From the NCBI GenBank assembly GCA_050182275.1, contig JBFXCK010000006.1, positions 23,759-87,758 on the forward strand: DNA of 64,000 nucleotides. The letters are read 5' to 3'. This document shows, piece by piece, positions 36,149-59,151 of the stretch. The DNA is from Dongiaceae bacterium. Lineage in GTDB: Bacteria; Pseudomonadota; Alphaproteobacteria; SHNJ01. The translations under genes and the position numbers were made by a program. Under the pieces are notes generated by a model. That model made no database searches. It saw only the letters and a program-made list of their open reading frames with translations, and was not told the DNA's origin. Position 1 is the stretch's first letter, and each line of letters starts with the position of its first letter.

Positions 36149-36358
36149 ATGGCGATTAGCACCCGCGATCCCGTCGATATGACTGGCCAGGAGCGTATGC
36201 AGGAAATCGCGGCCATTTTAGCCGCCTGTGTCCAAAGATTGCAAAAAAACGAGCAGAAACAATGCGATAAAGCCAATTTCGAGAGAAGTTTGACTGGACT
36301 TCAAGGGCGAATGAAGCATTCGTGTGACCACGCTGAGAACCAGAGTGGAGATGCTTAA
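36149..36358 (+). CDS. Hypothetical element protein
   Basis: AAGGAGG RBS; ER..EIA.ILA motif; precedes DUF2924. Confidence 0.65.
   Translation: MAISTRDPVDMTGQERMQEIAAILAACVQRLQKNEQKQCDKANFERSLTGLQGRMKHSCDHAENQSGDA
36291..36324 (+). promoter_or_regulatory. Motif B, copy 1
   Basis: TGACTGGA-N10-GAATGAAGCATTCGTG. Confidence 0.7.
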
Positions 36359-36359
36359 T

Positions 36360-36857
36360 ATGGCAACGAATGTCCTGGCAGAATATGCTGCCCTGAACGC
36401 GATGGAGATTAAAGACCTGCTGGTCGAATGGAACAAGTATTTCGACCGCCCACCGTCATCGCACAACAACAAAACCTACCTCGTCAATCAGATCATCTAT
36501 CGCATTCAGGAGCTGACCTACGGCGGCCTGACCCGGCGCACGATTGATCGGCTGGAGGCGCTGGCCGAAAGCGAGGTTGCGAACCAGCGCAAGTCAAATC
36601 CCAGCCGCCTGGCGGTGGGAACACGGCTGGTGCGGGAGGTCAAAGGCGTTGAACACCATGTGCAGGTGCTGGCCGATGGGTATGAATATCAGGGTATGAA
36701 ATACCGCAGCCTTTCGGGCGTGGCTTTTGCCATCACCGGCACGCGCTGGAATGGGAACGAGTTTTTTGGCCTCGGCAAAAAGGATGACAGCGAGAAGCGG
36801 CCTTACCACCGATCAAGAAAATGGCTGGCAGAGCAAGCCAAAAAGGCCAAGTTATGA
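36360..36857 (+). CDS. DUF2924 domain protein
   Basis: YRIQELTYGGL, GTRLVRE..G..H.V, Y.SLS.VA.AITGTRWNG..FFGL. Confidence 0.88.
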   Translation: MATNVLAEYAALNAMEIKDLLVEWNKYFDRPPSSHNNKTYLVNQIIYRIQELTYGGLTRRTIDRLEALAESEVANQRKSNPSRLAVGTRLVREVKGVEHHVQVLADGYEYQGMKYRSLSGVAFAITGTRWNGNEFFGLGKKDDSEKRPYHRSRKWLAEQAKKAKL

Positions 36858-38221
36858 TCGGCACGAATTTACCAGAAAAGAAAATCCTGCGCTGCGCAAT
36901 CTATACCCGTGTTTCTGACGACGAAGGGCTGGATCAGGAATTTAGCTCGCTGGATAATCAGCGTGAAGCTGGCGAATACCATATCAAGGCGCAAGCCCAT
37001 GCAGGATGGAGGGTGCTGCCGGAGCGTTACGACGATGGCGGATATTCAGCCAAGGATTTGCACCGTCCGGCCGCCAAACGCCTCCTGCAGGATATCATGG
37101 ACGGCAAAATCGACGTTGTGGTCGTTTACAAGATCGACCGGATGTCGCGCAATATGTTCGACTTTGTCGACTTAATGAAGTTGTTCGAACAGCACAAGGT
37201 TACTTTCGTTTCGGTCACCCAGCATTTTAATACCGAAACGGCGATGGGGAAACTCATTCTGAATATCCTGCAATCCTTCGCGCAGTTTGAGCGTGAAATG
37301 ACCGCGGAGCGGATCCGCGATAAATTCGCCGCCTCGAAAATGAAGGGCATGTGGATGGGAGGGCCGCCGCCGCTGGGCTATGACGTGGTTGAGCGCAAGC
37401 TCATCACCAATCCCAAGGAAGCCAAGCTGGTCAACCATATTTTTGAACGATATGTCGCCTTGAAAAGCACTACCTTGCTCTGTGACGAGCTGAAGCGTGA
37501 CGGCCACCACACGAAAGCCTATATCAGCCGCAAGGAGCGGCCTGTCGGCGGGCAAACCTTTGTCACCAACTCTATTCTGACAGTCTTGCGTAACAGGCTT
37601 TACGTTGGGGAAGTCCACCACAAGGGCAAATATTACCCTGGCCAGCACAAGGCCATTGTACAGCGCGCCCTGTTTGAACAGGCGCAGGAAATTCTGAACC
37701 AGAATGGCGGTATAAAGCGCAAGCGCACCTGGACGATAAAATCGAAAGCCTTGCTGAAGGGATTGCTGGTCTGCGGTGGCTGCGAGGGAATGATGTCGCC
37801 TACCCACACGCGCAAGGGCAACAAGCATTATCATTATTACGTCATGAATTCTTATCGCCGGAATTCTTGCGAAGGCTGCCCCATGGATCGCATCCCTGCC
37901 GGCGAGATCGAAGCGGTGGTCAGCAGCCAATTAAAAGCCATACTGGCCTCGCCACAGATCGTAGTCGAAACCTGGCGCAAGCTGAAAACACGCAATGCCG
38001 CCTATCAGGAAAGCGACCTGCACGATGCCATGCGGGATCTGAACAACGTGTGGGATAGCCTAATCCCTGAAGAGCGCAAACGCATCGCCATTCTGCTTAT
38101 TGACCGCGTGGTCACGCGATCGGATGGAATCGACATTGAATACCGCGCCGATGGCTTCGAAACGATCATCGATGATCTGCAGCGGAAGCTGAACGCCAAC
38201 CAGGAAAGGAGATCAGCCTGA
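36854..38221 (+). CDS. Large serine recombinase
   Basis: CAIYTRVS, YDDGGYS, KIDRMSR, FAQFERE, zinc ribbon; ATGA coupling to DUF2924. Confidence 0.95.
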   Translation: MIGTNLPEKKILRCAIYTRVSDDEGLDQEFSSLDNQREAGEYHIKAQAHAGWRVLPERYDDGGYSAKDLHRPAAKRLLQDIMDGKIDVVVVYKIDRMSRNMFDFVDLMKLFEQHKVTFVSVTQHFNTETAMGKLILNILQSFAQFEREMTAERIRDKFAASKMKGMWMGGPPPLGYDVVERKLITNPKEAKLVNHIFERYVALKSTTLLCDELKRDGHHTKAYISRKERPVGGQTFVTNSILTVLRNRLYVGEVHHKGKYYPGQHKAIVQRALFEQAQEILNQNGGIKRKRTWTIKSKALLKGLLVCGGCEGMMSPTHTRKGNKHYHYYVMNSYRRNSCEGCPMDRIPAGEIEAVVSSQLKAILASPQIVVETWRKLKTRNAAYQESDLHDAMRDLNNVWDSLIPEERKRIAILLIDRVVTRSDGIDIEYRADGFETIIDDLQRKLNANQERRSA

Positions 38222-38223
38222 CA

Positions 38224-38640
38224 ATGAGCCATGTACGAATAGAAAACAGTAAAATCATCGTCCACGTCCCGCTGAATTTGCGAACGTGGGGCGGCAAGAA
38301 AGTTATTGTCGGCCCGCAAGGAAAGGATTTGCGGGCGCTGGAGCTAGATATCCGCAAGGATGAAAAATTGCTCAAGGCGCTGGGGCGCGCCTATCGTTGG
38401 CATGGCTGGATTTTAACAGGCAAATACGCGACCGTGCAGGAAATGTCGGAGAGACAGAAAATCAACAAATCCTATATGCAGCGCATGATGCGGATCATGC
38501 AGTTGTCGCCCAAGATCGTGGAAGCCATCCTCGACGGCCAGCAGCCGGAGGGCTTTGCCTTACGGGATATCGAGCAGACCTTTTCGCCGCTTTGGTCTGA
38601 GCAGGAAAAGCAATTCGGTTTTACTTTCCCTCCTGCATAA
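38224..38640 (+). CDS. Recombinase-associated HTH-like protein
   Basis: GGKK, KALGRAYRW, L.PKIVEAILDG.QP; directly follows the recombinase. Confidence 0.7.
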   Translation: MSHVRIENSKIIVHVPLNLRTWGGKKVIVGPQGKDLRALELDIRKDEKLLKALGRAYRWHGWILTGKYATVQEMSERQKINKSYMQRMMRIMQLSPKIVEAILDGQQPEGFALRDIEQTFSPLWSEQEKQFGFTFPPA

Positions 38641-39031
38641 ACCGCTTTCTAGCGGCTAAAATTCTGTCATGATTCGTGTCTGCCCAATTTATCAATTCCC
38701 AAAGAGGTGGCAATAACGACCGTCCCAGCGGCGTCAGGCTGTATTCCACGCTAGGTGGTTTGGTGGCATAAACCGTTCGGTCGATCATGCCGTCCATTTC
38801 AAGGTCTCGCAGCGCTTGCGTTAAAACTCGCTGGGACATTTCTGGAATTTCTCTTTTCAATTCCCCGAAGCGCCAGGGACGCAGCGCCAAAGTGATCAAA
38901 ATCAGGACAATCCACTTGCCGCCAATACGATCAAGCGCATCCCGATATGGATAAGATTGAGGATTTTGAAACCTCTCTTTCCAGGTACGGCGGCGCTCTT
39001 GTAATTTTCTGGTGGCGTCGCTAGTCGGCAC
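38621..39031 (-). CDS. HxlR family transcriptional regulator
   Basis: IGGKWIVLIL, RFGEL, LRDLE.DG, PP.VEYSLT.LG. Confidence 0.92.
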   Translation of the reverse strand: MPTSDATRKLQERRRTWKERFQNPQSYPYRDALDRIGGKWIVLILITLALRPWRFGELKREIPEMSQRVLTQALRDLEMDGMIDRTVYATKPPSVEYSLTPLGRSLLPPLWELINWADTNHDRILAARKRFMQEGK

Positions 39032-39093: not shown

Positions 39094-40002
39094 CTAAGAA
39101 CAGTTTTCTTTACAATCAACTGTTTCAAATTCGATAGTGGAGTGCTGGATATTGTGATTAATTAGAAGAGTTTTCAGGCTTGCCTTCACTTCTTCCATGG
39201 ATTTCAGGTCTGCAATTACAACATGGGCTTCCAAAGCGTTTCTTTGCTCATCAAGTCGTCTCATATGAACATGATGAACGCTGGAAACACCTTTTAATTG
39301 CTGCATATCATGGATGATGGCCTCTGGATTTATACCTTCCGGCGTACCGTCCATAAGCAAATTCAAAACGGCTGGAAACTCCTTCACGGCCTGCAGCATG
39401 ACATATGCCGATATGACGAGCGTTATGATCGGATCAACAATCGTCCACCCGTAAAGCAAAATTAATGCGCCACCGATCATCACGCCTACGGATGAGAGAG
39501 CGTCTGCTATGTTATGCAGAAACGCCGCGCGGATATTCTGGCTTGTTTTGGGTTCCTTCCATGTTAGCGCTGCGGTTGCCGCGTCAATTATCAGAGCAAT
39601 GCCTGCCACGATGATGACCGTCCAACCCTCAACCGGCTCTGGCTCGATAAAACGGATAATCGCTTCGGTGCCGAGCCAAAAGCCAATCAGGATAAGAGAA
39701 GTCAGATTTATCAGCGCTGCTATGGTTTCTACACGCTGGTATCCATAGGTGCGCTTGCTATCCGGCTTTCGTTTGGCAATGCGCCGGGCAATCACGGCAA
39801 GCAAAAGAGAAGCGGCATCGCTAAAATTATGCAGAGCGTCGGCAATCAACGCCAAGCTGCCGGAGAATATCCCGCCTATGATTTGGGCCACTGTAAGTCC
39901 GACATTGATAACCACAGCCACGGAAAGTTTAGTATTCGTCATGTCACGCGCTGCTTGATGATGATTGTGTCCGTCGTGATTGTGGCCGTGGTTATCGCTC
40001 AT
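39094..40002 (-). CDS. czcD: CDF transporter CzcD-like
   Basis: His-rich N-terminus, ADALHNFSD, AFLHNIADA, HH.H. Confidence 0.88.
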   Translation of the reverse strand: MSDNHGHNHDGHNHHQAARDMTNTKLSVAVVINVGLTVAQIIGGIFSGSLALIADALHNFSDAASLLLAVIARRIAKRKPDSKRTYGYQRVETIAALINLTSLILIGFWLGTEAIIRFIEPEPVEGWTVIIVAGIALIIDAATAALTWKEPKTSQNIRAAFLHNIADALSSVGVMIGGALILLYGWTIVDPIITLVISAYVMLQAVKEFPAVLNLLMDGTPEGINPEAIIHDMQQLKGVSSVHHVHMRRLDEQRNALEAHVVIADLKSMEEVKASLKTLLINHNIQHSTIEFETVDCKENCS

Positions 40003-40024: not shown

Positions 40025-40528
40025 TTACTTGGCGTCTTGAGGATAAATTGTTTTGACCAATGCCTTCTGGCTTTCCAGCAGATCAAGAGCTTCGGTTGCG
40101 CCAGCGATGTTTTTATCTTCAGCGGCATGATGAAAGCGATCGATGGTCTTGTTCAGCTGATCAAGTGCCTTGATCAGCTTTTCGTTGTTTTCCTGCTTCG
40201 CTGCATGCGGCTGGTCGTGCAGGACGGCAATGGCAGCCGCCAGCTTCTCTCCAGCTTCGTGAAGCGTATTGGCATTGTTATCTTTCAATGCCTGACGGGC
40301 CGATGCGATGGTTTCATCGATCATTGTCCAGGCCGCGTCAACGGATGCTGGCTTAACTACAGAAAAATGGGGTTTTTCGTTATGGCCGTGACCATCGCCG
40401 TGCGCTTCTGAGTTCCCGTGGGCGTGTCCGGCTTCCGCGCCATGATCATGTCCGTCCGTCGCATAAACGGGAACGGACAAGGCTATAACAGCGATTCCGG
40501 CAAGCAGTAGGGTTTTAAACGGTTTCAT
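40025..40528 (-). CDS. Periplasmic His-rich putative metal-binding protein
   Basis: Signal peptide, HDHG..HAHG tracts, helical body. Confidence 0.7.
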   Translation of the reverse strand: MKPFKTLLLAGIAVIALSVPVYATDGHDHGAEAGHAHGNSEAHGDGHGHNEKPHFSVVKPASVDAAWTMIDETIASARQALKDNNANTLHEAGEKLAAAIAVLHDQPHAAKQENNEKLIKALDQLNKTIDRFHHAAEDKNIAGATEALDLLESQKALVKTIYPQDAK

Positions 40529-43500
40529 AGTTTTCCTCCTTCTTTGGTTTTGAAAACATTTTGTAAAGCGCGGGCAGAACGATCAGAGTCAGCAGCGTGG
40601 CGGTAATCAGTCCGCCGATCACGACGGTCGCCAGCGGCTTCTGCACTTCGGCTCCCGTGCCTGTCGCCAGTGCCATCGGAACGAAGCCAAGCGAGGCCAC
40701 CAGCGCAGTCATGAGAACCGGGCGCAAGCGGGTTAATGCGCCTTCGACAATAGCTTCCCGCGTTTGCATGCCCTTTTTCACAAGATCGTTAATGTAGGTG
40801 ATCATCACTAGACCGTTCAGCACGGCAATGCCTGAGAGCGCGATGAAGCCTACAGCCGCAGGAATCGAGAACGGCATATCGCGCAAGACCAGTGTAAGGA
40901 TGCCGCCGGAAATCGCCAACGGCACACCGCTGAACACCAGCAAAGCCTGTTTTGCTGATCCCAAGGCCGTAAACAGCATCATGAAAATCAAGAAGAAACA
41001 GGCCGGGACGACGATCATCAGGCGGTTTTGTGCCGCAACCAGGTTTTCAAACTGGCCGCCCCAATCGAGCCACAGGCCGGATGGCAGCTTGGTCTGTTGG
41101 TCAAGTTTCTGCTGTGCCTCCATAACAAAGGATCCAATATCGCGGCCACGGACATTGGCTTGCACCACGACGCGCCGTTTGCCGTTTTCGCGGCTGATCT
41201 GGTTCGGCCCTTCAGAAAGGCGGAACGTCGCCACTTCCTTAAGAGGCACAAAGGCGCCCCTTTCGCCGTCCTCGTGCGGCACAGGGACGGGCAAGTTTTC
41301 AAGCGCTGGGATATCCTGACGCACGGCTTCAGGGAGGCGCACGACAATGGGGAAACGTCTATCTCCCTCGAACACAAGCCCCGCTTCTTTGCCGCCGACC
41401 GCCGACGATACGAGATCAAGGATATCGCCGATATTCAGGCCATAACGTGCAATCGCGTCCTTGTTTAGATCAATATCCAGCATCGGAAGGCCTGTGGTTT
41501 GTTCGACCTTCACATCGGCGGCTCCTTCCACGCTTCGGAGAACGCTGGCGATTTTGTTCGCGGTTTCGGTCATGGTCTTAAAATCATCGCCATAGACCTT
41601 GACCGCCACGTCGCTGCGGACACCAGAAATCAGTTCGTTAAAGCGCATCTGGATCGGCTGCGTGTATTCATAGTTATTTCCTGGAACCTGCCCGACTGCT
41701 TTGGCCAGCTTCTCAAGAAAATCCGCTTTGGTCATAGACTGATCCGGCCATTCATCATGAGGTTTCAGAATGATAAAAGTATCGGATACGTTCGGCGGCA
41801 TGGGATCGGCGGCCATTTCCGCAGTTCCCGTCTTGGAGTAGACGAAGGCTACCTCCGGCAAGGCGCTGACGGCTTTCTCGACCTGTAACTGCATCGCTGT
41901 TGATTCCGAAATGCCGGTGCTGGGAATTCGCATGGCGTGCATGGCGATGTCTTTTTCATCCAAGGATGGGATGAATTCTTGTCCTAGGCGGCTGGCGACG
42001 AGTAGGGAAAAGATGAAGAATATCACCGCCGCAAGGACAACCACTTTTGGCCTGTTTAAAGACCAATTCAGCATCGGGGCATAACCTGACTTTGCTTTGG
42101 AAATAATCCGGCTTTCTTTTTCCTCCACCCTACCTGTGATGCACATGGCAATCATGGCGGGGACGAATGTGATGGAGAGAACAAAGGCGGCAATCAGAGC
42201 GATAATGACCGTCATGGCCATCGGCTCGAACATCTTGCCTTCGACGCCAGAGAAGGTCAGGAGCGGCAGATAGACCGTAATGATGATCGCTTGGCCGAAC
42301 ACAGCGGGCTGCACCATTTGACGGCTGGCTTCCAGCACTTCCTCCATGCGTTCTTTTAGAGACAGCAAGCGACCTTCGTGGTGCTGACGCTCTGCAAGGC
42401 GGCGTAAACAGTTTTCCGTCACGATTACTGCCCCATCCACGATCAATCCGAAGTCCAGCGCTCCTAGGCTCATCAAATTCGCGCTGATACCCGCTTTCAA
42501 CATTCCGGTTGCGGTCATCATCATGGTGATGGGGATGACCAGAGCCGTAATCAGCGCGGCGCGGATATTGCCGAGCAGCAGGAACAGGATCACAACAACC
42601 AGCAATGCGCCTTCACCAAGGTTTTTCTGCACCGTATGGATGGTGGCGTTGACGAGCTTCGTTCGGTTCAAAACCGTCTTTGCTTTAACACCTTCCGGTA
42701 GAGATTTATTTATCTCGGCAAGGCGCATATCGACAGCGTTAGAAACAATCCGGCTATTCTCGCCTTTGAGCATCATCGCTGTTCCGACCACGACCTCATG
42801 GCCGTTTTCGCTGGCGCTGCCAGTGCGAAGTTCCTTACCAAGCTCAACGCTCGCCACATCCTTCACATAAATTGGTATGCCGCCGCGCGTTTTTAGAACC
42901 ACATTGGCAATCTGGCCGATTGTCTCCAGTCTTCCATCGGCGCGGACAACATAAGACTCACCTTTTTGCTCCAGAAAACCGGCGCCTGTGCTGGCGTTAT
43001 TACGTTCAAGGGCTTCGATTACGTCCGAAAACGTCAAACCTAGAGCCGCCAGTTTCTGTGGATCGGGCTGGACATGATATTGCTGGGCGTATCCGCCTAT
43101 CGCATCAACCTCTGCCACTCCTTGCACGGTTTTCAGCTGCGGCCTGATGATCCAGTCTTGCACCGTGCGGAGATACATGGCTTTTTCGAATGGCGTTTTC
43201 AGCACGCGCCCTTCCGGCGTGGTATAGTCCGCATCAGGGTTTTCGCACTCGACAGTCCACATATAAATTTCGCCAAGGCCCGTGGAGATCGCGCCCATGC
43301 GCGGCTCTGCGCCTTCAGGCAAGGCTTCCTTGGCCTCTGTCAGGCGCTCGTTCACTTGAGCGCGGGCGAAGTAAATATCTACGTTGTCTTTGAAAATAAC
43401 GGTGACTTGCGCGAATCCATTGCGTGAAATCGAGCGTGTATAAGATAGCCCTGGAATTCCCGCCATCGCCGTTTCAATCGGATATGTGACTTGCTTTTCA

Positions 43501-43682
43501 ACCTCAAAGGGCGAAAGTGACGGCACTTCGACGTTGATGGCGACCTGATTGTTTGTAATGTCAGGAACGGCATCGATGGGCAATTTGCTAAGTGAATATA
43601 TCCCGTAGGACGCCATCACTGCCGTGATCATCACGATCAGGAGCCGATGGATAATCGAAAAGCTCAGTATTTTTTCTATCAT
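40515..43682 (-). CDS. czcA: Heavy-metal RND pump CzcA
   Basis: IDAVPDITN, ANLMSLGALDFGLIVDGAV, RLRPVLMTA. Confidence 0.95.
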   Translation of the reverse strand: MIEKILSFSIIHRLLIVMITAVMASYGIYSLSKLPIDAVPDITNNQVAINVEVPSLSPFEVEKQVTYPIETAMAGIPGLSYTRSISRNGFAQVTVIFKDNVDIYFARAQVNERLTEAKEALPEGAEPRMGAISTGLGEIYMWTVECENPDADYTTPEGRVLKTPFEKAMYLRTVQDWIIRPQLKTVQGVAEVDAIGGYAQQYHVQPDPQKLAALGLTFSDVIEALERNNASTGAGFLEQKGESYVVRADGRLETIGQIANVVLKTRGGIPIYVKDVASVELGKELRTGSASENGHEVVVGTAMMLKGENSRIVSNAVDMRLAEINKSLPEGVKAKTVLNRTKLVNATIHTVQKNLGEGALLVVVILFLLLGNIRAALITALVIPITMMMTATGMLKAGISANLMSLGALDFGLIVDGAVIVTENCLRRLAERQHHEGRLLSLKERMEEVLEASRQMVQPAVFGQAIIITVYLPLLTFSGVEGKMFEPMAMTVIIALIAAFVLSITFVPAMIAMCITGRVEEKESRIISKAKSGYAPMLNWSLNRPKVVVLAAVIFFIFSLLVASRLGQEFIPSLDEKDIAMHAMRIPSTGISESTAMQLQVEKAVSALPEVAFVYSKTGTAEMAADPMPPNVSDTFIILKPHDEWPDQSMTKADFLEKLAKAVGQVPGNNYEYTQPIQMRFNELISGVRSDVAVKVYGDDFKTMTETANKIASVLRSVEGAADVKVEQTTGLPMLDIDLNKDAIARYGLNIGDILDLVSSAVGGKEAGLVFEGDRRFPIVVRLPEAVRQDIPALENLPVPVPHEDGERGAFVPLKEVATFRLSEGPNQISRENGKRRVVVQANVRGRDIGSFVMEAQQKLDQQTKLPSGLWLDWGGQFENLVAAQNRLMIVVPACFFLIFMMLFTALGSAKQALLVFSGVPLAISGGILTLVLRDMPFSIPAAVGFIALSGIAVLNGLVMITYINDLVKKGMQTREAIVEGALTRLRPVLMTALVASLGFVPMALATGTGAEVQKPLATVVIGGLITATLLTLIVLPALYKMFSKPKKEENYETV

Positions 43683-43695
43683 CGTTTAAACTTTC

Positions 43696-44964
43696 TTAGT
43701 GTTCATGTTCCGCTTCAGCTTTGCCAAGCTCTGCCTTGAGCGTGAAAGTGTTGGAGATTGCAACAGGCTCGCCAAAACTCACGCCGGAGAGGATTTCAAC
43801 ATGACGGCTGTCCTCGCGCCCCGTGGTGACATCGCGCTTTTCAAACCCTTGCGCCGTTCGAACAAAAACTGCAGGTTTCCCGTTCATGGATTGCACCGCC
43901 TCTTTCGGCAAGATCAGGTCTGTTTCCTGTGCGGAGGTCGCAATCGCGGCGTTGGCAAACTCACCGGGACGCCATTTGCCTTCAGCGTTATCGAGTTCAA
44001 TAATCGCCTTGGCCGCGCGGGTTTCCGGATCGATGGCGGGGCTAACAAAAATCAATTTGCCTTCGGCTTTGCCGCCGCTGCCCACCACGTTGGTCATCAA
44101 GCCTTCTTTGACAAATGGCAAATCGCCAGGAGCGATGGCGATTTCCACCCATACGACGCTCAAATCGGCCACCGTGAAGGCCGAATGCGTGGTATCGACG
44201 TATTCGCCAAGTGTCAGTTCGCGGGCAATCACGCGCCCTGGCAGCGGAGAGCGCAATTCATGAAAGCGCGAATTTCCGTTGCTGGAAATTTCGCCATTCT
44301 GCCCTAAAGCCTGTAGTTTCTGCTTGGAAAGATCGAGCTTGATCTTGGCTTCTTGATGGGCATTTTTGGCAGTTAAATAATCCTGTTCCGCCGTAATCTT
44401 TTTATCCCACAGGCCTTTTTCACGATTGAACGTGGTGCGAGCAAGTTCCTCAGCGCGCTTGGCGGCGAGGTAATCGGCCACGGCTTCGGCCATTTCACGG
44501 CTCTCGATAAGGGCCAGTACTTCGCCTTTTTCAACCGTATCGCCTAAGTTTTTTCTGGCTTCCGTTACCGTGCCGCCAACTTTAGGAACGATCTGCGCCA
44601 TGCGGTCAGCAGCGGCAACAACTTTGCCAGGCACGGACACTTCCCGCGCCAGTTGACCTGGGCCAACAGCGGCGACTTTAATGCCCGCCGCGGCGATCTG
44701 TTCGGCGTTTAAAGGAATGACGCCTTCAGCATGCTCGCCTTTTTCTTCCCCGCCATGACCATGCCCATCCTCATGACCGTGACCATGCTGTTCTTCCTTG
44801 CCCTCATCATGCTTTTCCTCGCCCTCTTGATGAGCGTGGCTGTCCCCATGGCCTTCAGCTGCTTGGGTTGGCGAGACAGCATAATTCCATCCGATGACCC
44901 CGCCCGAAAGCGCAAGGATGGCCACGCCCGCCAAAAGCAAGTTTTTAATTTTTGGTTTGTTCAT
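43696..44964 (-). CDS. czcB: Membrane fusion protein CzcB
   Basis: His-rich linker, V.KGEVLA.IES, GKWRPG, LKAELGK..A.H.H. Confidence 0.92.
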   Translation of the reverse strand: MNKPKIKNLLLAGVAILALSGGVIGWNYAVSPTQAAEGHGDSHAHQEGEEKHDEGKEEQHGHGHEDGHGHGGEEKGEHAEGVIPLNAEQIAAAGIKVAAVGPGQLAREVSVPGKVVAAADRMAQIVPKVGGTVTEARKNLGDTVEKGEVLALIESREMAEAVADYLAAKRAEELARTTFNREKGLWDKKITAEQDYLTAKNAHQEAKIKLDLSKQKLQALGQNGEISSNGNSRFHELRSPLPGRVIARELTLGEYVDTTHSAFTVADLSVVWVEIAIAPGDLPFVKEGLMTNVVGSGGKAEGKLIFVSPAIDPETRAAKAIIELDNAEGKWRPGEFANAAIATSAQETDLILPKEAVQSMNGKPAVFVRTAQGFEKRDVTTGREDSRHVEILSGVSFGEPVAISNTFTLKAELGKAEAEHEH

Positions 44965-46333
44965 TTTTCTGTTCCTTTGTAGCTGTATTCTCTCTGTGTG
45001 CATGGGCTTGAGCATCGTCGTGCGTCGCGGCGATTCTTTCGAGTGCAGCGCGTTGCCGGTGATAATCGAGCGATACTTCATTAAGCTGCTTGCGCGCCTC
45101 GAATAATGTCCGCTGGGCATCCAAGACTTCGAGATAGTTAAATTTACCAGCGTCATAACCATCTCGCGCGAAACGGAACGCTTCTACTGCGCCCGGCAAC
45201 ACGGAAGATTTCAAAGCAACAGCCTCGCTGTAAGCATTTGAATAATTGCCGTACAACTCGGTTAACGCAGCCTCAAGATTGAGACGTGCGCTTTGCTCAT
45301 CAAGTGCGGCAGCTGTCACGTCATGACCAGCACGCTCAATGCCTGCGCGGTTCATATTGAAAACTGGAATCGGGATGGAAAGTCCAACAATGAAGGCTTG
45401 CGCATTATCTCCCCTGAAATCCCTTACGCCGAAGTTCAAAGTGGGATCAGGGACGGCATTGGCCTTTTCAAGCGACAATCCAGCTTTGGCGCGATCAATG
45501 CTCGCGCGAAGGCTCATTGCGTCTGGTGTTTTTCTGAGACGTTCACGATATTTTTCAACTGGTTCGGGCTGTTGCGGTTCTGGCAAGCTATCGATGCTGG
45601 CCGTAAAGTCTCCGGTATCGCCGCCCATCAGGGATGACAACGCCTGTTTCTTTGCGGCAAGGTTCCTGTAAGCGCGATCAAGAGCAATTTTGCTGGAAGA
45701 TAATTCAATCTCTGCTTTGTTTTTCTGGATATATGGCTCTTTTCCCGCCTGCACCTTGGCGACCACGCTGTCACGCACTTCGGTGGCCAGGTTTTGCTCT
45801 TCTTCTAGAATAGATACTTCCTGCTGGGCTGCGGCAACTTCCGCAAAAGCTATAGTGACATCGCGGATGAGGTTGAGCGTTACCCCATCACTGGTAAAAT
45901 GCGCGCTGTCTTTTTCGGCATCGGCAATGCGTGTGCGGCCACTACGCTTGCCGGGCATTTCAATAAGCTGCGAAACGCCATAAGTCATCTCGGCGTTATC
46001 CAAGCTACGGTAGGCTTGATCTCCGTAAATATTTTCAGCCTCGACCGACAATGAAGGATTGGGCAAAGCTCCCGCAGCCGAACGATTGGCATCTGCAGCG
46101 CTGACGCGGGCGGACGATGCTCCAAGCATAGGGGATTTCTCAACGGCTCTTTTAATTGCTTGATCCAGCGTAAGCGCCGTCTTAGCGATGGGTTGAACAA
46201 TCAGCGCTTCAGCCATCGGCGGGGCTGGCTTCGCTTCCTGAGCATATGCAGGGAGCGCTGGCGGCAAAGAAACCGTCGTCAGCAAAGCAAATATCATGAG
46301 CGGGATATTCATCCCAAATCTAGGGGTAGCCAT
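44945..46333 (-). CDS. czcC: Outer membrane factor CzcC (TolC family)
   Basis: LPNPSL, IPIPVFN.N, YLEVLDAQRTL. Confidence 0.92.
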   Translation of the reverse strand: MATPRFGMNIPLMIFALLTTVSLPPALPAYAQEAKPAPPMAEALIVQPIAKTALTLDQAIKRAVEKSPMLGASSARVSAADANRSAAGALPNPSLSVEAENIYGDQAYRSLDNAEMTYGVSQLIEMPGKRSGRTRIADAEKDSAHFTSDGVTLNLIRDVTIAFAEVAAAQQEVSILEEEQNLATEVRDSVVAKVQAGKEPYIQKNKAEIELSSSKIALDRAYRNLAAKKQALSSLMGGDTGDFTASIDSLPEPQQPEPVEKYRERLRKTPDAMSLRASIDRAKAGLSLEKANAVPDPTLNFGVRDFRGDNAQAFIVGLSIPIPVFNMNRAGIERAGHDVTAAALDEQSARLNLEAALTELYGNYSNAYSEAVALKSSVLPGAVEAFRFARDGYDAGKFNYLEVLDAQRTLFEARKQLNEVSLDYHRQRAALERIAATHDDAQAHAHRENTATKEQKNEQTKN

Positions 46334-46432
46334 GGAAAATCCTTGTTGATTGACATGCGTAATACGGTCGCAATCGCTTTTTTAAAAAGCGGCGTTACAG
46401 AGAATGGGCTTTTCAGCCCAAGCCCTGTTCAA

Positions 46433-46789
46433 TCAAGAAAGGATTCGAGGAGGGCGTTTTAATCCGGATATAAAGTCATCATCCGGATCGGAATTGATAT
46501 TGGTAAAGGCAGTTTTTCTAACTGGAACTTCTACATTAACGCTGAATTGCGTTATGGTGGCGTGGGCCGTACAGCAGTGACCGCAACTAATGCAGGAATG
46601 CTTTGCATCTTTTGAGGTCTGATCTTCTTTGGAGTCATTTTTAAGATGACTCGCGCAATCATTTTGAGCGCCATCTGTTTTCTCAGCGGAGAGACTTTGT
46701 CCACATTTCGGCGAATCAAAAGCGTGAGCAGCGGCTGAAAAGCCGCTGAATCCGATAGCAAAAATCAGCAATAGGATCAAAATTCTCAT
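46433..46789 (-). CDS. CzcI-like Cys/His-rich leader protein
   Basis: Signal peptide AAHA, HSCISCGHCC, C-terminal KRPPR. Confidence 0.8.
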   Translation of the reverse strand: MRILILLLIFAIGFSGFSAAAHAFDSPKCGQSLSAEKTDGAQNDCASHLKNDSKEDQTSKDAKHSCISCGHCCTAHATITQFSVNVEVPVRKTAFTNINSDPDDDFISGLKRPPRILS

Positions 46790-47556
46790 AGTAACTACAT
46801 AGCATACCCAGACTGTGTTAACAATATCTTAGCGAATATTCTTCGTCTTTCTGTCGCGCTGGGGCGATTAAAACGCGTTTCAGCCTAACAGTGCAAACTA
46901 TCGACTATAGTTTCCTTATGCAAATTTAGACGATTGGCTCAGATCACCAGCCGTGAAGATCGCGATCAGGCCGGCTCCTTCCTCAATGCCTCCCCTTAGA
47001 AATTTTAAGAAGGCCACCTTCACAGGAGGGAGGACGCAACATCCGAATCCAAATCAATCATGAAAACAAAATCCGGCCTTGAGCAATCATGAGCGATTTA
47101 TTGTCACACTGATGTATGCCAGTTGAAATTTTTTTTACGCTGCTGTTTGTGCCAAAAACATACACCTGTATCAAAGCAGTTTAGCAAAACCTTTTTACAT
47201 CAATCGTATCGCCCACGCGTTTTGTACGCGGTCGTTACTTTGCAATCTCTATCAGAGCAAAAACTGCCTTCTTGTGCGCTTCACGCCCATTCATACGCTC
47301 GCGCCCATATCGCCGTAATAGCTCTGATAGTCCGTCAGCTGCATAGCGATGAACCGTCCCGGAAAAGGGAAGATGTGAACATTGCTATGAATGAGAACCA
47401 TGCTGAATTACCGATTTGTCTTCAAGCCTTAAACGTGCGCACGCCATTGGGGTGCGGCTTTCGCGCGTCCGGTGTTCACGCATGAACTAAGTTCAGACTG
47501 CGTAGTATCACTCCGCCATTTTTCTTTTTTCCTGGGCCTAATCAAGGAAAAAGAAA

Positions 47557-48129
47557 ATGGCCAACAACCGCTACAGCGGCGTAGATTCCTACGCCGCTTT
47601 TTTTATTGCGTATAAAGCAAAAACCCTCACCCGAATGCCGATTTTTACTTTGGGTGATTATGACGATCTCCAACAGGAATTGATGCTGGCTTATCTGCAT
47701 GCGTGGCCTGGGTTCGATCCAACCAAAGGTGATCGGCGCAGCTTCATCAAAACTGTGGTCAACACGAAAGCGTTGATGCTGGTGCGCGATGCGGAACGGC
47801 AAAAGCGCTGGACAGGCGCGCGGGTCGTGTCTCTGTCCGCGCCGGTGGGCGACGGTGACGATCCGACAACGCTGGCCGATGTCATCGATCATGAAAGCGG
47901 TCTATGGGGCAACGTGTTCCAGCACCATAGCCAAGCCTTTGCCGAGCAGAGGCTCGATATCAGACGCATACTGGCCGTCATGCCGGATGATCTCCGACAG
48001 ACCTATCAGGCATTGTCAGAAAATAGCGTTTCTGAGGCTGCGATCATCCTGGGCATTCCCCGCACCACCATGTCCAGCCGATTGAAAAAATTGAGAAAAT
48101 TCGTGGAGGACTATATGGCGCAAAAATAA
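47557..48129 (+). CDS. Element-encoded sigma-70 family (ECF-like) factor
   Basis: DDLQQEL, FDP.KG...SFI..VV (region 2), C-terminal HTH SVSEAA.ILGIPRTT. Confidence 0.8.
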   Translation: MANNRYSGVDSYAAFFIAYKAKTLTRMPIFTLGDYDDLQQELMLAYLHAWPGFDPTKGDRRSFIKTVVNTKALMLVRDAERQKRWTGARVVSLSAPVGDGDDPTTLADVIDHESGLWGNVFQHHSQAFAEQRLDIRRILAVMPDDLRQTYQALSENSVSEAAIILGIPRTTMSSRLKKLRKFVEDYMAQK

Positions 48130-48139
48130 TCTGCTGCCG

Positions 48140-48169
48140 CATCGTCGTTTTCGAAGCGAACGGCATACC
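48140..48169 (+). promoter_or_regulatory. Bipartite motif A, copy 2
   Basis: CATCGTCGTTTT-N8-ACGGCATACC. Confidence 0.7.
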
Positions 48170-48205
48170 AGCCCTGTGTGACCACATCACACGAAAGGAA
48201 AAGGT

Positions 48206-48421
48206 ATGAATCAGGCACAAAACGGCGATATGGCCATGTTCAAGTGGGTGCAGCGCGCGCCCGTTGGTCAGCTAAAAGCTCTGACAGACGAACGTCTGCA
48301 GGAAATTCGGGAAGCACTGGTCAAGGAAGTCCGGGAGGTTGGCCGCGCCCTGCAATGGGTAGACGGCATTATCAAGCTGAAAGCCATCGAGCGCGACAAG
48401 GCTGCCCCAGAGAAAGAGTAA
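48206..48421 (+). CDS. Hypothetical phage protein
   Basis: AAGG RBS, helical 71 aa. Confidence 0.6.
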   Translation: MNQAQNGDMAMFKWVQRAPVGQLKALTDERLQEIREALVKEVREVGRALQWVDGIIKLKAIERDKAAPEKE

Positions 48422-48425
48422 TGCG

Positions 48426-50561
48426 GTGACACCGGATAAAGGGACACCGCCAAAGATCATTCCCCTGAAGCCGCTCTCGGCATCGGAATTGCGCCCGCGC
48501 GTGCTGAACGCATTGCCTGACATTCTCCGATACCTTCTTCCCGCTGGCATTATTCGTGGTCGAAAATTCATGGTCGGCGATATCGGCGGCAACAAGGGCG
48601 ACAGTCTGGTTGTCGAGCTGCATGGTGAGAAAGCCGGACTCTGGCATGATTTTGCCACCGGCGCTGGAGGTGACGTTTTCGATCTATGGGGCGCGGTCAA
48701 AGGCCTCGATCGGCAATCGCAGTTCCCGGCGCTGCTGCAGGATATTCAAAGCCATCTTGGCGCTGGTCTGCCGCCCGCGCCGCGTGCATCTCCGCGATCC
48801 GCTCCGGTCAGCAGGAAACTCGGCAACCCTACCGCAAAGTGGGATTACACAGATAGTGCCGGCCAGATCATCGCCTCCGTTTATCGCTACGATCTACCGG
48901 ACGGCTCCAAGGAATTCAGGCCGTGGGATGCCGTGCGCGGGGTGATGAAAGCGCCAGATGTTCGCCCGCTTTATAACCAGCCCGGCCTGAAAAACGCCGA
49001 GATGGTCGTCCTGGTCGAAGGCGAGAAATGTGCCGAGGCGCTTTTATCGGTGGGCGTGTGCGCGACCACGGCCATGAATGGAGCAAAAGCGCCGGTGGCT
49101 AAAACAGACTGGTCGCCTTTGCAAGGAAAAAGAGTGATCATCTGGCCGGATCACGACGATCCAGGCTTGGATTACGCGCGCAACGCTGCCAGTGCGGCCG
49201 CCCGCGCTGGTGCTGTCCATGTGCATATCCTGAAGATCCCGCTCGAAAAACCGCAAGCGTGGGATGCCGCTGACGCGGTGGCCGAAGGATTGGACATTCC
49301 CGCCATTCTCAGAAATTGGGAGCGTCTTGTGGCCAAGGATACGCCGCCACCGCGCAAAACTCTGCCGCTTTACAGTATCGCGGAGCTGCAGCAGGACAAC
49401 ACGCCCATTCCTGATGATCTGATTTCCCCGCGCATCTTAACTCCCGGTGGCCTGCTGGTGTTCGGTGGTGCGCCGAAGGTCGGTAAAAGCGATTTCCTGA
49501 TTGCGCTTCTGGCGCACATGGCGGGCGGTGCGCCATTTCTCGGCATGAGCTGCAAGCGTCCCTTGCGCGTGTTTTATCTGCAGGCCGAGGTTCAATACCA
49601 CTATCTGCGCGAGCGTGTGCAACGGTTGGCTTTCACAGAGGCCGCCACGCTGTTCCTGAATTCCAATTTCGTTGTCACGCCGCAAATTTCCATCACGCTG
49701 AATGAGGCCGGTATTGAAACGGTGGTGGATGCCGTCCGTCAGCGTTTTTCCGATGCGCCGCCCGACATCATTGCCATCGATCCCCTGCGCAATGTTTTCG
49801 ACGGCGGCGGGCTTGGCGGCGAAAATGATAATGACGCGATGATGTTCTTTCTGGCGCAGCGCCTTGAGGAGTTGCGTCGCCGCATCAACCCGAATGCTGG
49901 AATCATCCTGGCGCATCATACCCGAAAGCTGTTCAAGAAAGCGGCGGAAGAAGACCCGTTTCAGGCATTAAGCGGCGCTGGGGCGCTGCGTTCCTATTAC
50001 ACCTCCGGCATCATGCTCCACCGGCCAGACGAGAAGCGGCCAGAACGGCTTTTGCTTTTTGAATTGCGCAACGGCCCGGAACTTCCACCCAAGATGATCG
50101 TCCGTGCCGCGCAGGGTTGGGAAGAAACCGAAAACTATGTCGGGCGTCTGGCTTTCAAGGAACAGGGCGAGCGCCAGGATGCCGAACGCCTGCGCAAAAC
50201 CGACACCATCATTCGCCTGATTTACGAACAGGCGCTGACGGGGCAAATATTCACCGCCAATCAATTCGCCGAAACATTCGAGAATAAAGATGGGCTGGGC
50301 AGCAGCCGCACAATCCGCGAGCGCCTCAGCGTGCTTGCCACCAAAGGCCATGTGAAGTTTTTCAAGAACGCCGATGTGTATGGGCTGCCGCTTCTGGCGC
50401 GCAGTCGCCAAGGTTATCTCTGCGTCGACGGCATGATGTTGAACACGGGCCGCATGATCGTGCCGACGCATTACAAGGATTCGCAATCCGGCGAAATTTT
50501 GCCCGTGGTTTACACGCCGAGCCTTCCGTTCTCCGCCGCTGATGACGGGGAGGAATCGTGA
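48426..50561 (+). CDS. Primase (TOPRIM)-helicase (RecA/AAA_25) fusion
   Basis: W.DFATG.GGD, VEGEKCA, WPDHD..G, GAPKVGKS, IDPLRN, HHTRK. Confidence 0.9.
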   Translation: MTPDKGTPPKIIPLKPLSASELRPRVLNALPDILRYLLPAGIIRGRKFMVGDIGGNKGDSLVVELHGEKAGLWHDFATGAGGDVFDLWGAVKGLDRQSQFPALLQDIQSHLGAGLPPAPRASPRSAPVSRKLGNPTAKWDYTDSAGQIIASVYRYDLPDGSKEFRPWDAVRGVMKAPDVRPLYNQPGLKNAEMVVLVEGEKCAEALLSVGVCATTAMNGAKAPVAKTDWSPLQGKRVIIWPDHDDPGLDYARNAASAAARAGAVHVHILKIPLEKPQAWDAADAVAEGLDIPAILRNWERLVAKDTPPPRKTLPLYSIAELQQDNTPIPDDLISPRILTPGGLLVFGGAPKVGKSDFLIALLAHMAGGAPFLGMSCKRPLRVFYLQAEVQYHYLRERVQRLAFTEAATLFLNSNFVVTPQISITLNEAGIETVVDAVRQRFSDAPPDIIAIDPLRNVFDGGGLGGENDNDAMMFFLAQRLEELRRRINPNAGIILAHHTRKLFKKAAEEDPFQALSGAGALRSYYTSGIMLHRPDEKRPERLLLFELRNGPELPPKMIVRAAQGWEETENYVGRLAFKEQGERQDAERLRKTDTIIRLIYEQALTGQIFTANQFAETFENKDGLGSSRTIRERLSVLATKGHVKFFKNADVYGLPLLARSRQGYLCVDGMMLNTGRMIVPTHYKDSQSGEILPVVYTPSLPFSAADDGEES

Positions 50562-59000: not shown

Positions 59001-59151
59001 TACGGAAGGGTTGGGATCGGACGTGATGCGCCGGATCGCCTTGCCAATGGTTGGAGGCATGGTGACGACCACGCTGTTGACGCTGATCGTTATTCCGGTG
59101 ATTTACTTTATTTACCAGTCAAGATGGCTCAAAGAGGAGAACTACGAATAA
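56005..59151 (+). CDS. cusA: Cu/Ag RND pump CusA
   Basis: LDAIPDLSDTQV, GPDATGVGW, Met triad contexts LYMP / SMIET / DMV. Confidence 0.96.
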   Translation: MADISHDPTKSFVARVIDWSVNNPLMISILACLILVGGIFAVQRMPLDAIPDLSDTQVIVRTDFEGQAPQIIENLVTYPLSSAMLGLPQTKIVRGFSMFGASFVYVIFKDGTDQYWARSRVLEALSKVQSTLPSAAKVQIGPDATGVGWVYQYALVDKSGKHDLSQLRSLQDWFLKFELATVPGVSEVASVGGFVKEYQVLVDPVKLRAFGISLMRIQEALKASSQEAGGRVIEQAETEFVIRSKGYVTGIADLEKLALKAKDGTPVRLVDVARIVEGPELRRGVTELNGEGEVVSGIIIMRPGGNALDVIKAIKQKMEMLKPGLPEGVEIVSVYDRAPLIEGSVEYLSHKLIEEAIVVSLVCLIFLLHVRSSFVAIITLPLGVLAAFIVMSAQGITANIMSLGGIAIAIGAMVDASIVMVENAHRKLSELPKDVSAEDKRAALLLAAKEVGPGLFFSLLIITVSFLPVFALTGQSERLFSPLAFTKTYSMAAAAILSVTVVPLLMLWLIRGKILPEERNPINRFFIAIYKPVLALALRAKWLTLALAGLVLLSMAWPIMRTGNEFMPALYEGDLLYMPTTLPGVSVTKAKELVATTNRLIKTVPEVETVFGKAGQAETATDPAPISMIETWVHLKPREQWRKGLTTETLIKEMDALTKMPGLVNSWGYPIKIRMDMVTTGIRTPVGIKVSGADLNTIGQIAVDVEQAVKTVPGTRSAFADRVVGAKYLEIEPDRDALARYNIDLGTVQDVIATALGGMKLSESVQGRERYGIMLRYDRPFRENAEDLQNILVDTPDGAQVPLGTLATIKFAPGPQMIVSENARLNGWVFVDIVGRDIGGYVRDAQRVVAEKVKLPAGYSIGWSGQFEQMLEAQARLDIAIPATVGIIFLLLIMHFGRLDRTLMVMLSLPFGLVGGVWVLYFAGYNFSVAVAVGFIALAGIAVETAVVMLIYIDQQVRHHPPQNRADLFEAVMHGAALRVRPKLMTVSVIIAGLLPIFFTEGLGSDVMRRIALPMVGGMVTTTLLTLIVIPVIYFIYQSRWLKEENYE

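Follow-up and report, generated by a model that had tools for sequence, protein, structure and literature searches.

A candidate CutF-type leader cassette ahead of a czcCBA-CDF metal-efflux operon in a Dongiaceae bacterium

The operon described here lies in a stretch of 64,000 nucleotides (the window) from a Dongiaceae bacterium, GenBank assembly GCA_050182275.1, contig JBFXCK010000006.1 (C6:23759-87758). Positions are counted from the first letter of the window, except where the prefix C6 refers to the contig. A small leader open reading frame (ORF), P0001, precedes a czcC-type gene of a heavy-metal efflux operon on the minus strand. A preliminary description had proposed that the last codons of this leader sequester czcC's Shine-Dalgarno (SD) sequence, and that a ribosome stalled on the leader opens it. 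Sequence, RNA folding and comparative analyses suggest that the leader and the spacer behind it might form a nascent-chain metal-sensing cassette of the type known from CutF.

The leader gene and its protein family

The leader and the genes of the operon are arranged as follows.

46433..46789, minus strand: leader ORF P0001, 118 aa, CutF/CopL/CzcI/DUF2946-like; stop codon TGA at 46435-46433
44945..46333, minus strand: czcC-type outer-membrane factor, 462 aa (OEP, E 6.4e-41), with an initiation site that is sequestered in the predicted fold
43696..45162, minus strand: czcB-type periplasmic adaptor (HlyD_D23, E 5.7e-35; TIGR00999, E 1.5e-59)
40515..43682, minus strand: czcA-type heavy-metal efflux (HME) pump of the resistance-nodulation-division (RND) type (TIGR00914, 1564 bits)
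40025-40528, minus strand: exported 167-aa His-rich protein, between czcA and the cation diffusion facilitator (CDF) gene
39094-40002, minus strand: CDF/ZitB-like exporter, at the operon's end

The leader stop and the czcC start (ATG at 46333) are separated by 99 nt. Three features of the leader are central to the argument.

46721..46789, minus strand: putative Sec-type signal peptide, codons 1-23, MRILILLLIFAIGFSGFSAAAHA, then FD, read from sequence
46571..46594, minus strand: C-x-x-C-x-H-C-C metal-ligand cluster, codons 66-73, its Cys invariant in 23 sequences
46448..46456, minus strand: R112-P113-P114 (CGC CCT CCT), candidate arrest site, invariant in 23 sequences

Translation of 46433..46789(-) gave the C-terminus K-R-P-P-R-I-L-S-stop (TGA) that the preliminary description had reported. 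The signal peptide and the CxxCxHCC motif that it had named were also found, as a signal-like n-h-c N-terminus and as C66-I-S-C69-G-H-C72-C73. The signal peptide region is canonical, with A-x-A sites recognized by eye, and an AlphaFold2 (AF2) helix covers residues 2-14. Two A-x-A cleavage sites are possible in this region (FAIGFSG...AAAHAFD), one of which leaves an N-terminal His. Further cysteines of the leader are C29 and C45.

A word-indexed search identified 22 homologues of P0001. In the resulting 23-sequence alignment the signal-peptide core, C29, C66, C69, C72, C73 and R112-P113-P114 are invariant, and the mature part outside these motifs is poorly conserved. The signal peptide is the best conserved part of the leader and nearly invariant, which is unusual for a signal peptide. 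Since synonymous sites vary throughout it, this near-invariance reflects selection on the peptide itself. The Arg112 codon (46454-46456, minus strand) is CGC in 15/15 distinct relatives; that of Arg2 is AGA, CGT or CGC. The AF2 model from the 23-row alignment contains the signal helix only, with a predicted local confidence (pLDDT) of 49.5, and the Atlas model is of similarly low quality.

A profile search of 1.84 billion cluster representatives identified 173 proteins at E<=1e-3, and the C-terminal Pro-Pro (PP) counts refer to the best 150 of these 173. A PP lies within the last 15 residues of 147 of the 150; the three exceptions are sequences of 45 aa and 95 aa and a protein of 190 aa in which the match covers no more than the first 77 residues. 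Four residues follow the PP in 107 of the 147, five in 25, and another number in 15. The C-terminal motif of the family reads [L/K/E]-R-P-P-[K/R/Q]. The gap between the last CxxC and the first Pro is 40 residues in 92 representatives and 41 in 31, together 123 of the 139 that carry a CxxC. Among 46 distant representatives, C69 never varies and at least 90% keep C72. The residues after the PP vary freely in the wider family, and their conservation in near relatives is therefore likely driven by the RNA.

Comparison with known family models places the leader near several of them. CopL_fam (NF033807) is the best NCBIfam match of P0001, aligned over residues 3-114, and 22 of the 46 representatives match it at E<=0.01. 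DUF2946 (PF11162) is matched by 12 of 46 spread representatives at E<=0.01 (best 3.1e-4), and a six-frame search of the bacterium's own genome with this model gave no match at E<=0.1. The Atlas neighbours of P0001 were automatically named DUF2946 with a score of 0.96, which is a lead only. The CzcI family model (NF045614) gave no match to P0001 at E<=0.01, and 14 of the 46 representatives match it weakly at this threshold (best 1.3e-7). Judged from these profiles, the leader family appears to be a remote relative that lies between CopL, CzcI and DUF2946.

RNA structure between the leader and czcC

The proposed pairing between the leader tail and the czcC SD was borne out letter by letter. On the mRNA, AAUCCUU (46445-46439)-UC-UUGAUUGA (46436-46429) is an exact complement of UCAAUCAA (46353-46346)-C-AAGGAUU (46344-46338), and the SD, AAGGA (46344-46340), lies inside the 3' arm, 6 nt before the czcC ATG. 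RNAfold of 46460-46325 returned the expected closing stem with three hairpins enclosed. The minimum free energy (MFE) was -47.9 kcal/mol, compared with -27.1 ± 3.3 for 200 shuffles (z -6.35), and no shuffle was as good. With one extra G-U pair, the closing stem pairs 46446-46439 with 46344-46337 and 46436-46429 with 46353-46346. The helices of this fold are listed below; the counts of pairs that change on both sides come from a MAFFT alignment and a covariance model (CM) alignment of the relatives.

46429..46446, minus strand: closing helix, 5' arm (anti-SD), made of the last four sense codons, TGA and 4 nt beyond (RNAfold)
46337..46353, minus strand: closing helix, 3' arm with the czcC SD (RNAfold)
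46397..46428, minus strand: hairpin H1 (RNAfold); 8/11 pairs (MAFFT) or 10/11 (CM) change on both sides
46375..46391, minus strand: hairpin H2 (RNAfold); 6/8 pairs (MAFFT) or 7/8 (CM) change on both sides
46356..46372, minus strand: hairpin H3, short, the weakest helix, its loop different in the window; 3 pairs, 79-87% paired, 1 double-change pair

A scanner flagged H1 as terminator-like. This candidate was rejected because the U-rich 3' side belongs to the outer part of H1, which covaries.

The element was compared across 18 related loci, from metagenome-assembled genomes labelled Micavibrio, Pseudobdellovibrionaceae, Bdellovibrionales, Rhodospirillaceae and Alphaproteobacteria, and from metagenome contigs. 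They comprise 15 distinct sequences from few lineages, several of them near-identical. The ending RPP[KR]xxx-TGA is found in 19/19 leaders (the window and the 18 loci), and an SD-preceded AUG lies 98-106 nt past the leader stop in 15/15 distinct sequences. With 33 nt of 5' context, the closing stem is part of the MFE structure in 14/15. When folding ran from the codon after the PP to the AUG, the stem formed in 15/15, and the UGA stop paired with UCA in 15/15, which would explain the sole use of TGA in this subfamily.

Covariation was counted for a four-helix structure that was specified by the analyst and then imposed on the structure-blind MAFFT alignment. In this alignment 86.2% of the cells are paired, against 30.6-44.0% when the partners are slid by 1-3 columns, and 17 pairs show changes on both sides. 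None of 500 shuffles reached the observed values on four of five measures; on the fifth, further pair types, 12/500 did. The CM alignment, which leans towards the specified structure by construction, gave 89.7% paired cells and 20 double-changed pairs. Most of the covariation sits in H1 and H2, and the closing helix is 84-87% paired (MAFFT/CM). A frame-anchored table, which takes its pairing partners from per-sequence folds, contains more stem compensations, at -9, -8, -4, -2, +6 and +7 from the stop. One compensation is clean: in the L005/L006/L014 lineage a synonymous Leu change, CUU>CUC, in the leader is matched by A>G beside the SD. The covariance model found one copy of the element in the bacterium's own 1.8-Mb genome. 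Conserved junction and loop bases include the GUAACG linker and UUACGCA.

Several of the RNA results weaken the case for the closing stem. RNAalifold on the MAFFT alignment returned H1 and H2 only (14/19 pairs double-changed) and did not recover the closing stem. Counted by columns, 2/12 pairs of the closing helix are double-changed, and 8 depart only by unpaired cells. In L018 the stem disappears when the 5' context is longer; the GGAG of L002/L003 lies in a small local hairpin beside the stem. Because the relatives represent few lineages, the covariation counts also overstate independence.

Pairing between leader tail and SD was further sought in the wider family, at 28 distant loci with spacers of 30-170 nt (4/32 with spacers <30 or >170 nt were dropped). 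Start codons were picked automatically, some visibly wrong (e.g. L051), and kin are not independent. The SD window pairs over at least 5 nt with its own leader tail in 16/28 loci, compared with 247/756 (33%) for tails swapped between loci and 184/560 (33%) for shuffled tails. The excess is moderate. Different sequences form the pairing in several of these loci, e.g. CUCCUG/CAGGAG in L022 and L047. The absence of such pairing in 12/28, for which the start picks are partly unreliable, counts against the CutF-type reading, and the excess counts for it.

These data bear on the simplest alternative, in which a pyrimidine-rich ORF end and a purine-rich SD are complementary by chance. The arm-arm duplex has an energy of -17.0 kcal/mol, equalled by 2/2000 dinucleotide shuffles of the SD arm and 6/2000 of the tail arm. 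However, the tail pairs just as strongly with 988 of 18276 arbitrary 35-mers taken from the window (5.4%), and swapped tails pair in a third of the trials, as given above. The duplex energy by itself is thus unremarkable, and it is conservation and covariation that carry the case. The compensatory changes over 15 distinct relatives, the stop codon paired in all of them and the shuffle counts of the four-helix structure leave chance with next to no credibility.

In another alternative, the four-way junction itself would do the sensing, as an RNA that binds a ligand or a protein, and the leader would only deliver ribosomes. Metal riboswitches of the NiCo type, with a four-helix junction, precede czcD-like genes. 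The three covarying hairpins and the conserved junction and loop bases exceed what SD masking needs. However, an Rfam search over 45800-47400 at E<=1 identified no relevant family for the spacer; its sole match was the thermometer RF02762, at chance level (15 bits against a gathering threshold of 125) and inside the ORF. The protein motifs show strong selection in their own right, and distant family members with quite different spacers keep the tail-SD pairing. A sensing junction is highly improbable on this evidence.

The effect of a ribosome on the fold was modelled with opening costs for 46346-46328 (SD..+6). A ribosome covers about 12 nt upstream and about 15 nt downstream of the first P-site base.

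No ribosome, free mRNA: P(SD unpaired) 0.03; opening cost 12.05 kcal/mol
P site 10 codons upstream: P(SD unpaired) 0.03; opening cost 10.35 kcal/mol
P site on Pro113 or Pro114: P(SD unpaired) 0.43-0.44; opening cost 5.1-5.7 kcal/mol
Stop codon in the A site: P(SD unpaired) 0.42; opening cost 5.41 kcal/mol

A ribosome with its P site on Pro113 or Pro114 engulfs AAUCCUU (46445-39), and the modelled cost falls from 12.05 to 5.1-5.7 kcal/mol. The earlier proposal that a ribosome at RPP opens the SD is therefore supported by the model, but not as a property of that position alone, since a terminating ribosome has an equal effect. The geometry suggests that czcC initiation is coupled to the dwell time of the ribosome on the last five codons, and leaves a regulation of this dwell time unproven. 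In the distant loci that pair through different sequences, such as L022 and L047, a ribosome on the PP lowers the modelled opening cost from 11-20 to 3-9 kcal/mol. The loci L020 (1492-1990) and L021, both on the minus strand, have a leader end FGLKRPPRVFA-TAA and a motif HCGHGCAHSH. They contain four mutually complementary segments: the tail UUUUGCC, GGGCAAAA, UUUUGCCC and GCAAAAGG, the last of which holds the SD. In L020 the opening cost is 5.3-5.5 kcal/mol with a ribosome on the PP, 8.2 at the stop and 7.6 in free RNA. As a lead only, these two loci may resemble an erm-type attenuator in which the SD would be open only for a ribosome paused on the PP; the modelled effect is only 2-3 kcal/mol in L020 and weaker in L021.

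The equal effect of a terminating ribosome favours a reading without arrest. Here the stem would merely tie czcC to leader translation, the released periplasmic CzcI/CopL-like product would act, and RPP would be kept for another reason. The weak matches of the representatives to the CzcI (14/46) and CopL_fam (22/46) models fit this view, and PMC9973294 discusses CzcI of C. metallidurans, which is described there as having no C-terminal proline motif, as a metal-sensing regulator. However, the four-residue distance from PP to stop (107/150) and the 40-41-residue ruler (123/139) are hard to explain for a folded periplasmic protein. No leader fold was predicted in the models described above, and the mature part is poorly conserved outside its motifs. 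In the model, the SD of L020 opens only for a ribosome on the PP, a small effect that is less clear in L021. Plain translational coupling is rather unlikely in the light of these features.

Promoter, regulators and genomic context

The region upstream of the leader is also conserved. Two promoter elements were predicted.

46819..46824, minus strand: predicted -35 TTGTTA of the leader promoter; TTG.T invariant in 13/13 aligned upstream regions
46796..46804, minus strand: predicted extended -10 (TGC TATGTA), 17 nt past the -35 and 6 nt before the ATG

Upstream of the leader ATG, 45 nt keep the same order in 13/13 regions: TTGTTA, 17 nt, TGn-TATGTA, 6-7 nt, ATG. Within the extended -10, two bases never vary, the G of TG and the A at position 2, and at least 90% of the regions keep the T at position 1 (n=13). 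No SD-like motif was found in the 6-7 nt before the leader ATG in any of the 13 aligned regions. Transcription usually starts about 7 nt past a -10 element. This arrangement predicts a conserved sigma70-like promoter and a leaderless leader transcript, starting at or within a base or two of the AUG. A consensus promoter scanner did not list the proposed site and gave only a weak site about 340 nt upstream. As for contigs from RNA-labelled runs, one of 344 nt (its run type is a guess) spans 46122-46465, with the leader end, spacer and czcC, and is not evidence of transcription. One metatranscriptome contig spans 46265-46416 and shows neither transcription nor its start or end. Of four RNA-labelled runs checked as contigs, two are probably DNA.

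The absence of czcRS from the window, noted earlier, was confirmed: no Response_reg match above the Pfam cut-off occurs in C6:23759-87758. One sub-threshold match lies at about 28366-28515, and the nearest real one is at C6:15046. No gene of the MerR_1 or HTH_5 (ArsR) families was found in the window. A second RND pump gene occurs at about 56053-59112 on the plus strand (ACR_tran, E 2e-232). The leader-family profile has one match in the whole genome, so the second pump has no such leader. The genome carries efp.

Across the relatives, promoter, leader and spacer stay together, with different genes upstream of the leader in the three that were inspected (RepB/ParB, terminase, AAA_13). The context of the czc module is mobile. 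On one side (36324-39031) are DUF2924, a large serine recombinase (36821-38221) and an HxlR-type helix-turn-helix (HTH) gene; the other flank (47557-50561) contains a sigma factor gene resembling the extracytoplasmic function (ECF) type (47557-48129) and a Toprim/AAA_25 primase-like gene (48426-50561). The relative L001 shares the ECF-like sigma gene with 92% identity. A profile of the 46 diverse representatives matched 36/401 sampled genomes of the phylum. A narrow profile matched 5/401 genomes of the class and 0/2 of the window's own family, and these sparse matches fit carriage on a mobile island. The region 45900-46900 is present in full in two landfill-metagenome runs, which may be its source, and in part (0.2-0.6 of the sampled words) in river, groundwater, lake, indoor, soil, sludge and further landfill runs.

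In most of the relatives the genes run leader, DUF305 lipoprotein, czcC, czcB, czcA. The czcC of the window is a hybrid, and its first ~13 codons (46295-46333, minus strand) derive from the start of a DUF305 lipoprotein gene. The comparison, made with L002:3461-4099 and L002:4032-5471, shows the DUF305 start (MATPRFGMNIPLM against MTTPKIGMNIPLL) fused in frame to the signal peptide of czcC, whose native sequence is matched from about residue 17 onwards. The in-frame junction implies that the cassette and the initiation region were kept when the first target gene was lost by deletion. The longest czcB ORF and the end of czcC share 218 nt (44945-45162, minus strand) in different frames. The first ~58 residues of czcB show 43-65% identity to relatives at four loci, and 78-83% where the match is unbroken. 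The two genes may truly overlap here, or the similarity may follow from czcC conservation, with the real czcB start lying further on. The 167-aa protein (40025-40528) has an N-terminal stretch rich in His, DGHDHGAEAGHAHGNSEAHGDGHGHNEKPH, and its C-terminal part is helical; the family scan gave no match for it above cut-off.

Proposed mechanism and comparison with known systems

These analyses suggest a self-contained post-transcriptional cassette of the CutF type ahead of the czcCBA-CDF metal-efflux operon. Transcription would start at or near the leader AUG from the conserved promoter, and the 118-aa leader, to judge from its signal peptide, would be exported co-translationally through Sec. 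In free mRNA the last four sense codons, the UGA and four further bases would pair with the czcC SD region, so that czcC initiation is off; this helix would close a four-way junction with three hairpins, as the folds and the covariation indicate. In the model, a ribosome on the last five codons would hold the anti-SD inside and leave the SD free. R-P-P, four codons before the stop and 40-41 residues past the Cys cluster, may slow or arrest the ribosome upon metal binding, when the exported, metal-bound Cys-rich part of the nascent chain could not fold, oxidise or be pulled. Such an arrest would lengthen the time for which the SD is open and switch CzcC(BA) on, by homology with CutF. The RNA half of this mechanism is well supported; the arrest and metal-sensing half we infer.

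A motif scan found DFGLIVDGAVIVTEN at residues 410-424 of CzcA, which we take to resemble the signature of divalent-cation HME-RND pumps. In view of this presumed Czc-type motif and the CDF partner, the sensed metal is probably divalent (Zn/Cd/Co); Cu is possible.

A CutF-type nascent-chain metal-sensing cassette that gates czcC is the best-supported explanation of the locus, and we give it slightly more credence than doubt. A broader proposal is tentative and on balance doubtful: a portable cassette of leaderless promoter, exported Cys-rich RPP leader and four-way-junction spacer, acting without a dedicated regulator protein, might sense periplasmic Zn/Cd/Co, and not Cu, through the nascent chain and replace czcRS on mobile islands of predatory and other small-genome bacteria. 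If this were true, transmembrane nascent-chain sensing would extend beyond copper, and the stop-codon-paired anti-SD with the fixed 4-codon and 40-residue rulers would be design rules.

Beyond the RNA results discussed above, some findings do not favour a CutF-type sensor. P0001 misses the DUF2946 threshold (18.2 bits vs 23.7, E 0.0042) and the CopL_fam cut-off (22.1 bits vs 40, E 1.8e-4). Its motif is R-P-P-[KR], unlike the PPP of CutF, and it does not have the R-[A/G]-P-P core of demonstrated arrest with Arg two before the P-site Pro, the sequence being K-R-P-P-R. Since a ribosome at the stop opens the SD equally (5.41 kcal/mol), regulated arrest is not required by the RNA design. The HxlR-type HTH gene (38621-39031) at the operon's end could also regulate transcription.

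CutF of the R. capsulatus cutFOG operon is a DUF2946-like protein exported through Sec, with CxxxC and a proline motif at its C-terminus (PMC9973294). Upon copper-dependent stalling, the ribosome melts a stem-loop that masks the cutO SD, and CutF acts in cis only (PMC9973294; 10.1101/2025.02.05.636593). The CutF mechanism further includes dependence on the signal peptide and on EF-P. In a screen for small signal-peptide proteins with a C-terminal PP, genes for RND outer-membrane efflux factors (CusC/CzcC/SilC) were the commonest downstream neighbours (PMC9973294). Measured against the filters of that study, P0001 has 118 aa (limit <150 aa) and P113-P114 followed by four residues; czcC lies 99 nt downstream, and the cysteines are those of CxxCxHCC with C29 and C45 (PMC9973294). 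The N-terminal Sec signal peptide, also among the filters, is suggested by the n-h-c region and the AF2 helix. The SD-shielding stem-loop of the CutF mechanism is found at czcC, in silico and by covariation. By its sequence, then, P0001 would fall within the published operational definition of a CutF-like protein, with a CutF-type RNA design.

CruR (Bp2923) of B. pertussis points to a different logic. It has RAPP three residues from its end with a conserved 45-residue spacing to CxxC, and it acts through Rho termination and is switched off by copper (PMC9426467). Its arrest at Pro-Pro was shown in vitro (PMC12992588); its spacer is 162 nt long, and it acts without need of the signal peptide (PMC9973294). 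CruR and P0001 are upstream ORFs of the same superfamily, with CxxC, a C-proximal Arg/Pro-Pro and a conserved ruler between the motifs. An analogous device, with default arrest at RPP, relief by metal and control via Rho-dependent termination in the spacer, would build on these likenesses and on the arrest at the CruR Pro-Pro. However, it has the wrong sign for an efflux pump, which metal would switch off. The long, poorly structured Rho-loading spacer of the CruR type was not found either: nearly all of the 99-nt spacer is predicted to pair, and its hairpins covary, leaving little free RNA for Rho loading, with rut sites unscored. Here the signal peptide is the best conserved part, in contrast to the signal-peptide-independent action reported for CruR. 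RAPP vs KRPP, a spacing of 45 vs 40-41 residues (last Cys to first Pro) and a spacer of 162 vs 99 nt also separate the two, as do Rho termination, the Cu switch-off and signal-peptide independence from the mechanism proposed here. CruR-type control of czcC is therefore improbable.

A full-text literature search found no study of a czc-linked RPP leader, and the supplements of PMC9973294 may list this subfamily. The mechanism is not known to have been resolved by experiment beyond CutF and CruR, which are both specific for copper; for CopL, only genetics in cis is cited (PMC9973294). RND outer-membrane genes were the commonest CutF-like neighbours (PMC9973294), yet no such case is known to have been dissected. 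The present locus is a compact test case. It combines an anti-SD in the leader codons, a covarying four-helix spacer, the invariant RPP, two rulers and a probably leaderless start, and it precedes a Czc-type divalent-metal pump in a neighbourhood that lacks two-component, MerR and ArsR regulators. If the mechanism were confirmed, nascent-chain metal sensing would control heavy-metal efflux, and the cassette would move with the operon on mobile islands.

Like CutF, P0001 is small and predicted to be Sec-exported, with a Cys motif, extra upstream Cys and a C-terminal Pro motif with basic flanks. An SD-masking stem-loop follows in both, and the same order is proposed: metal, stall, melting of the stem, downstream translation. 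The target, however, is a czcC-type RND outer-membrane factor, and that of CutF is a multicopper oxidase. The anti-SD lies within the leader's last codons and stop and closes a ~100-nt four-way junction, whereas in CutF the intergenic hairpin is simple. The sensed metal is probably other than Cu. A predicted leaderless start is a further difference.

CzcI and CzcI2 (NF045614, PF28244) also lie directly upstream of czcC and are small, exported and Cys/His-bearing; unlike in P0001, the C-terminal proline motif is missing in the Cupriavidus proteins, according to PMC9973294. CopL of Xanthomonas/Stenotrophomonas precedes the copper genes copA/copB, whereas P0001 precedes czcC. CopL is needed in cis for metal-induced expression of its downstream gene (PMC9973294). 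SecM, VemP, MifM, ApdA and ApdP are exported or membrane-targeted arrest peptides, in which a C-terminal stall unmasks the SD of the next gene, as proposed here. These peptides monitor the secretion machinery, not metal, and their cores are RAGP, RAPP and RGPP, compared with RPP[KR]. Taken together, the locus likely belongs to the published CutF/DUF2946 class of nascent-peptide metal sensors and would represent that class rather than a new principle.

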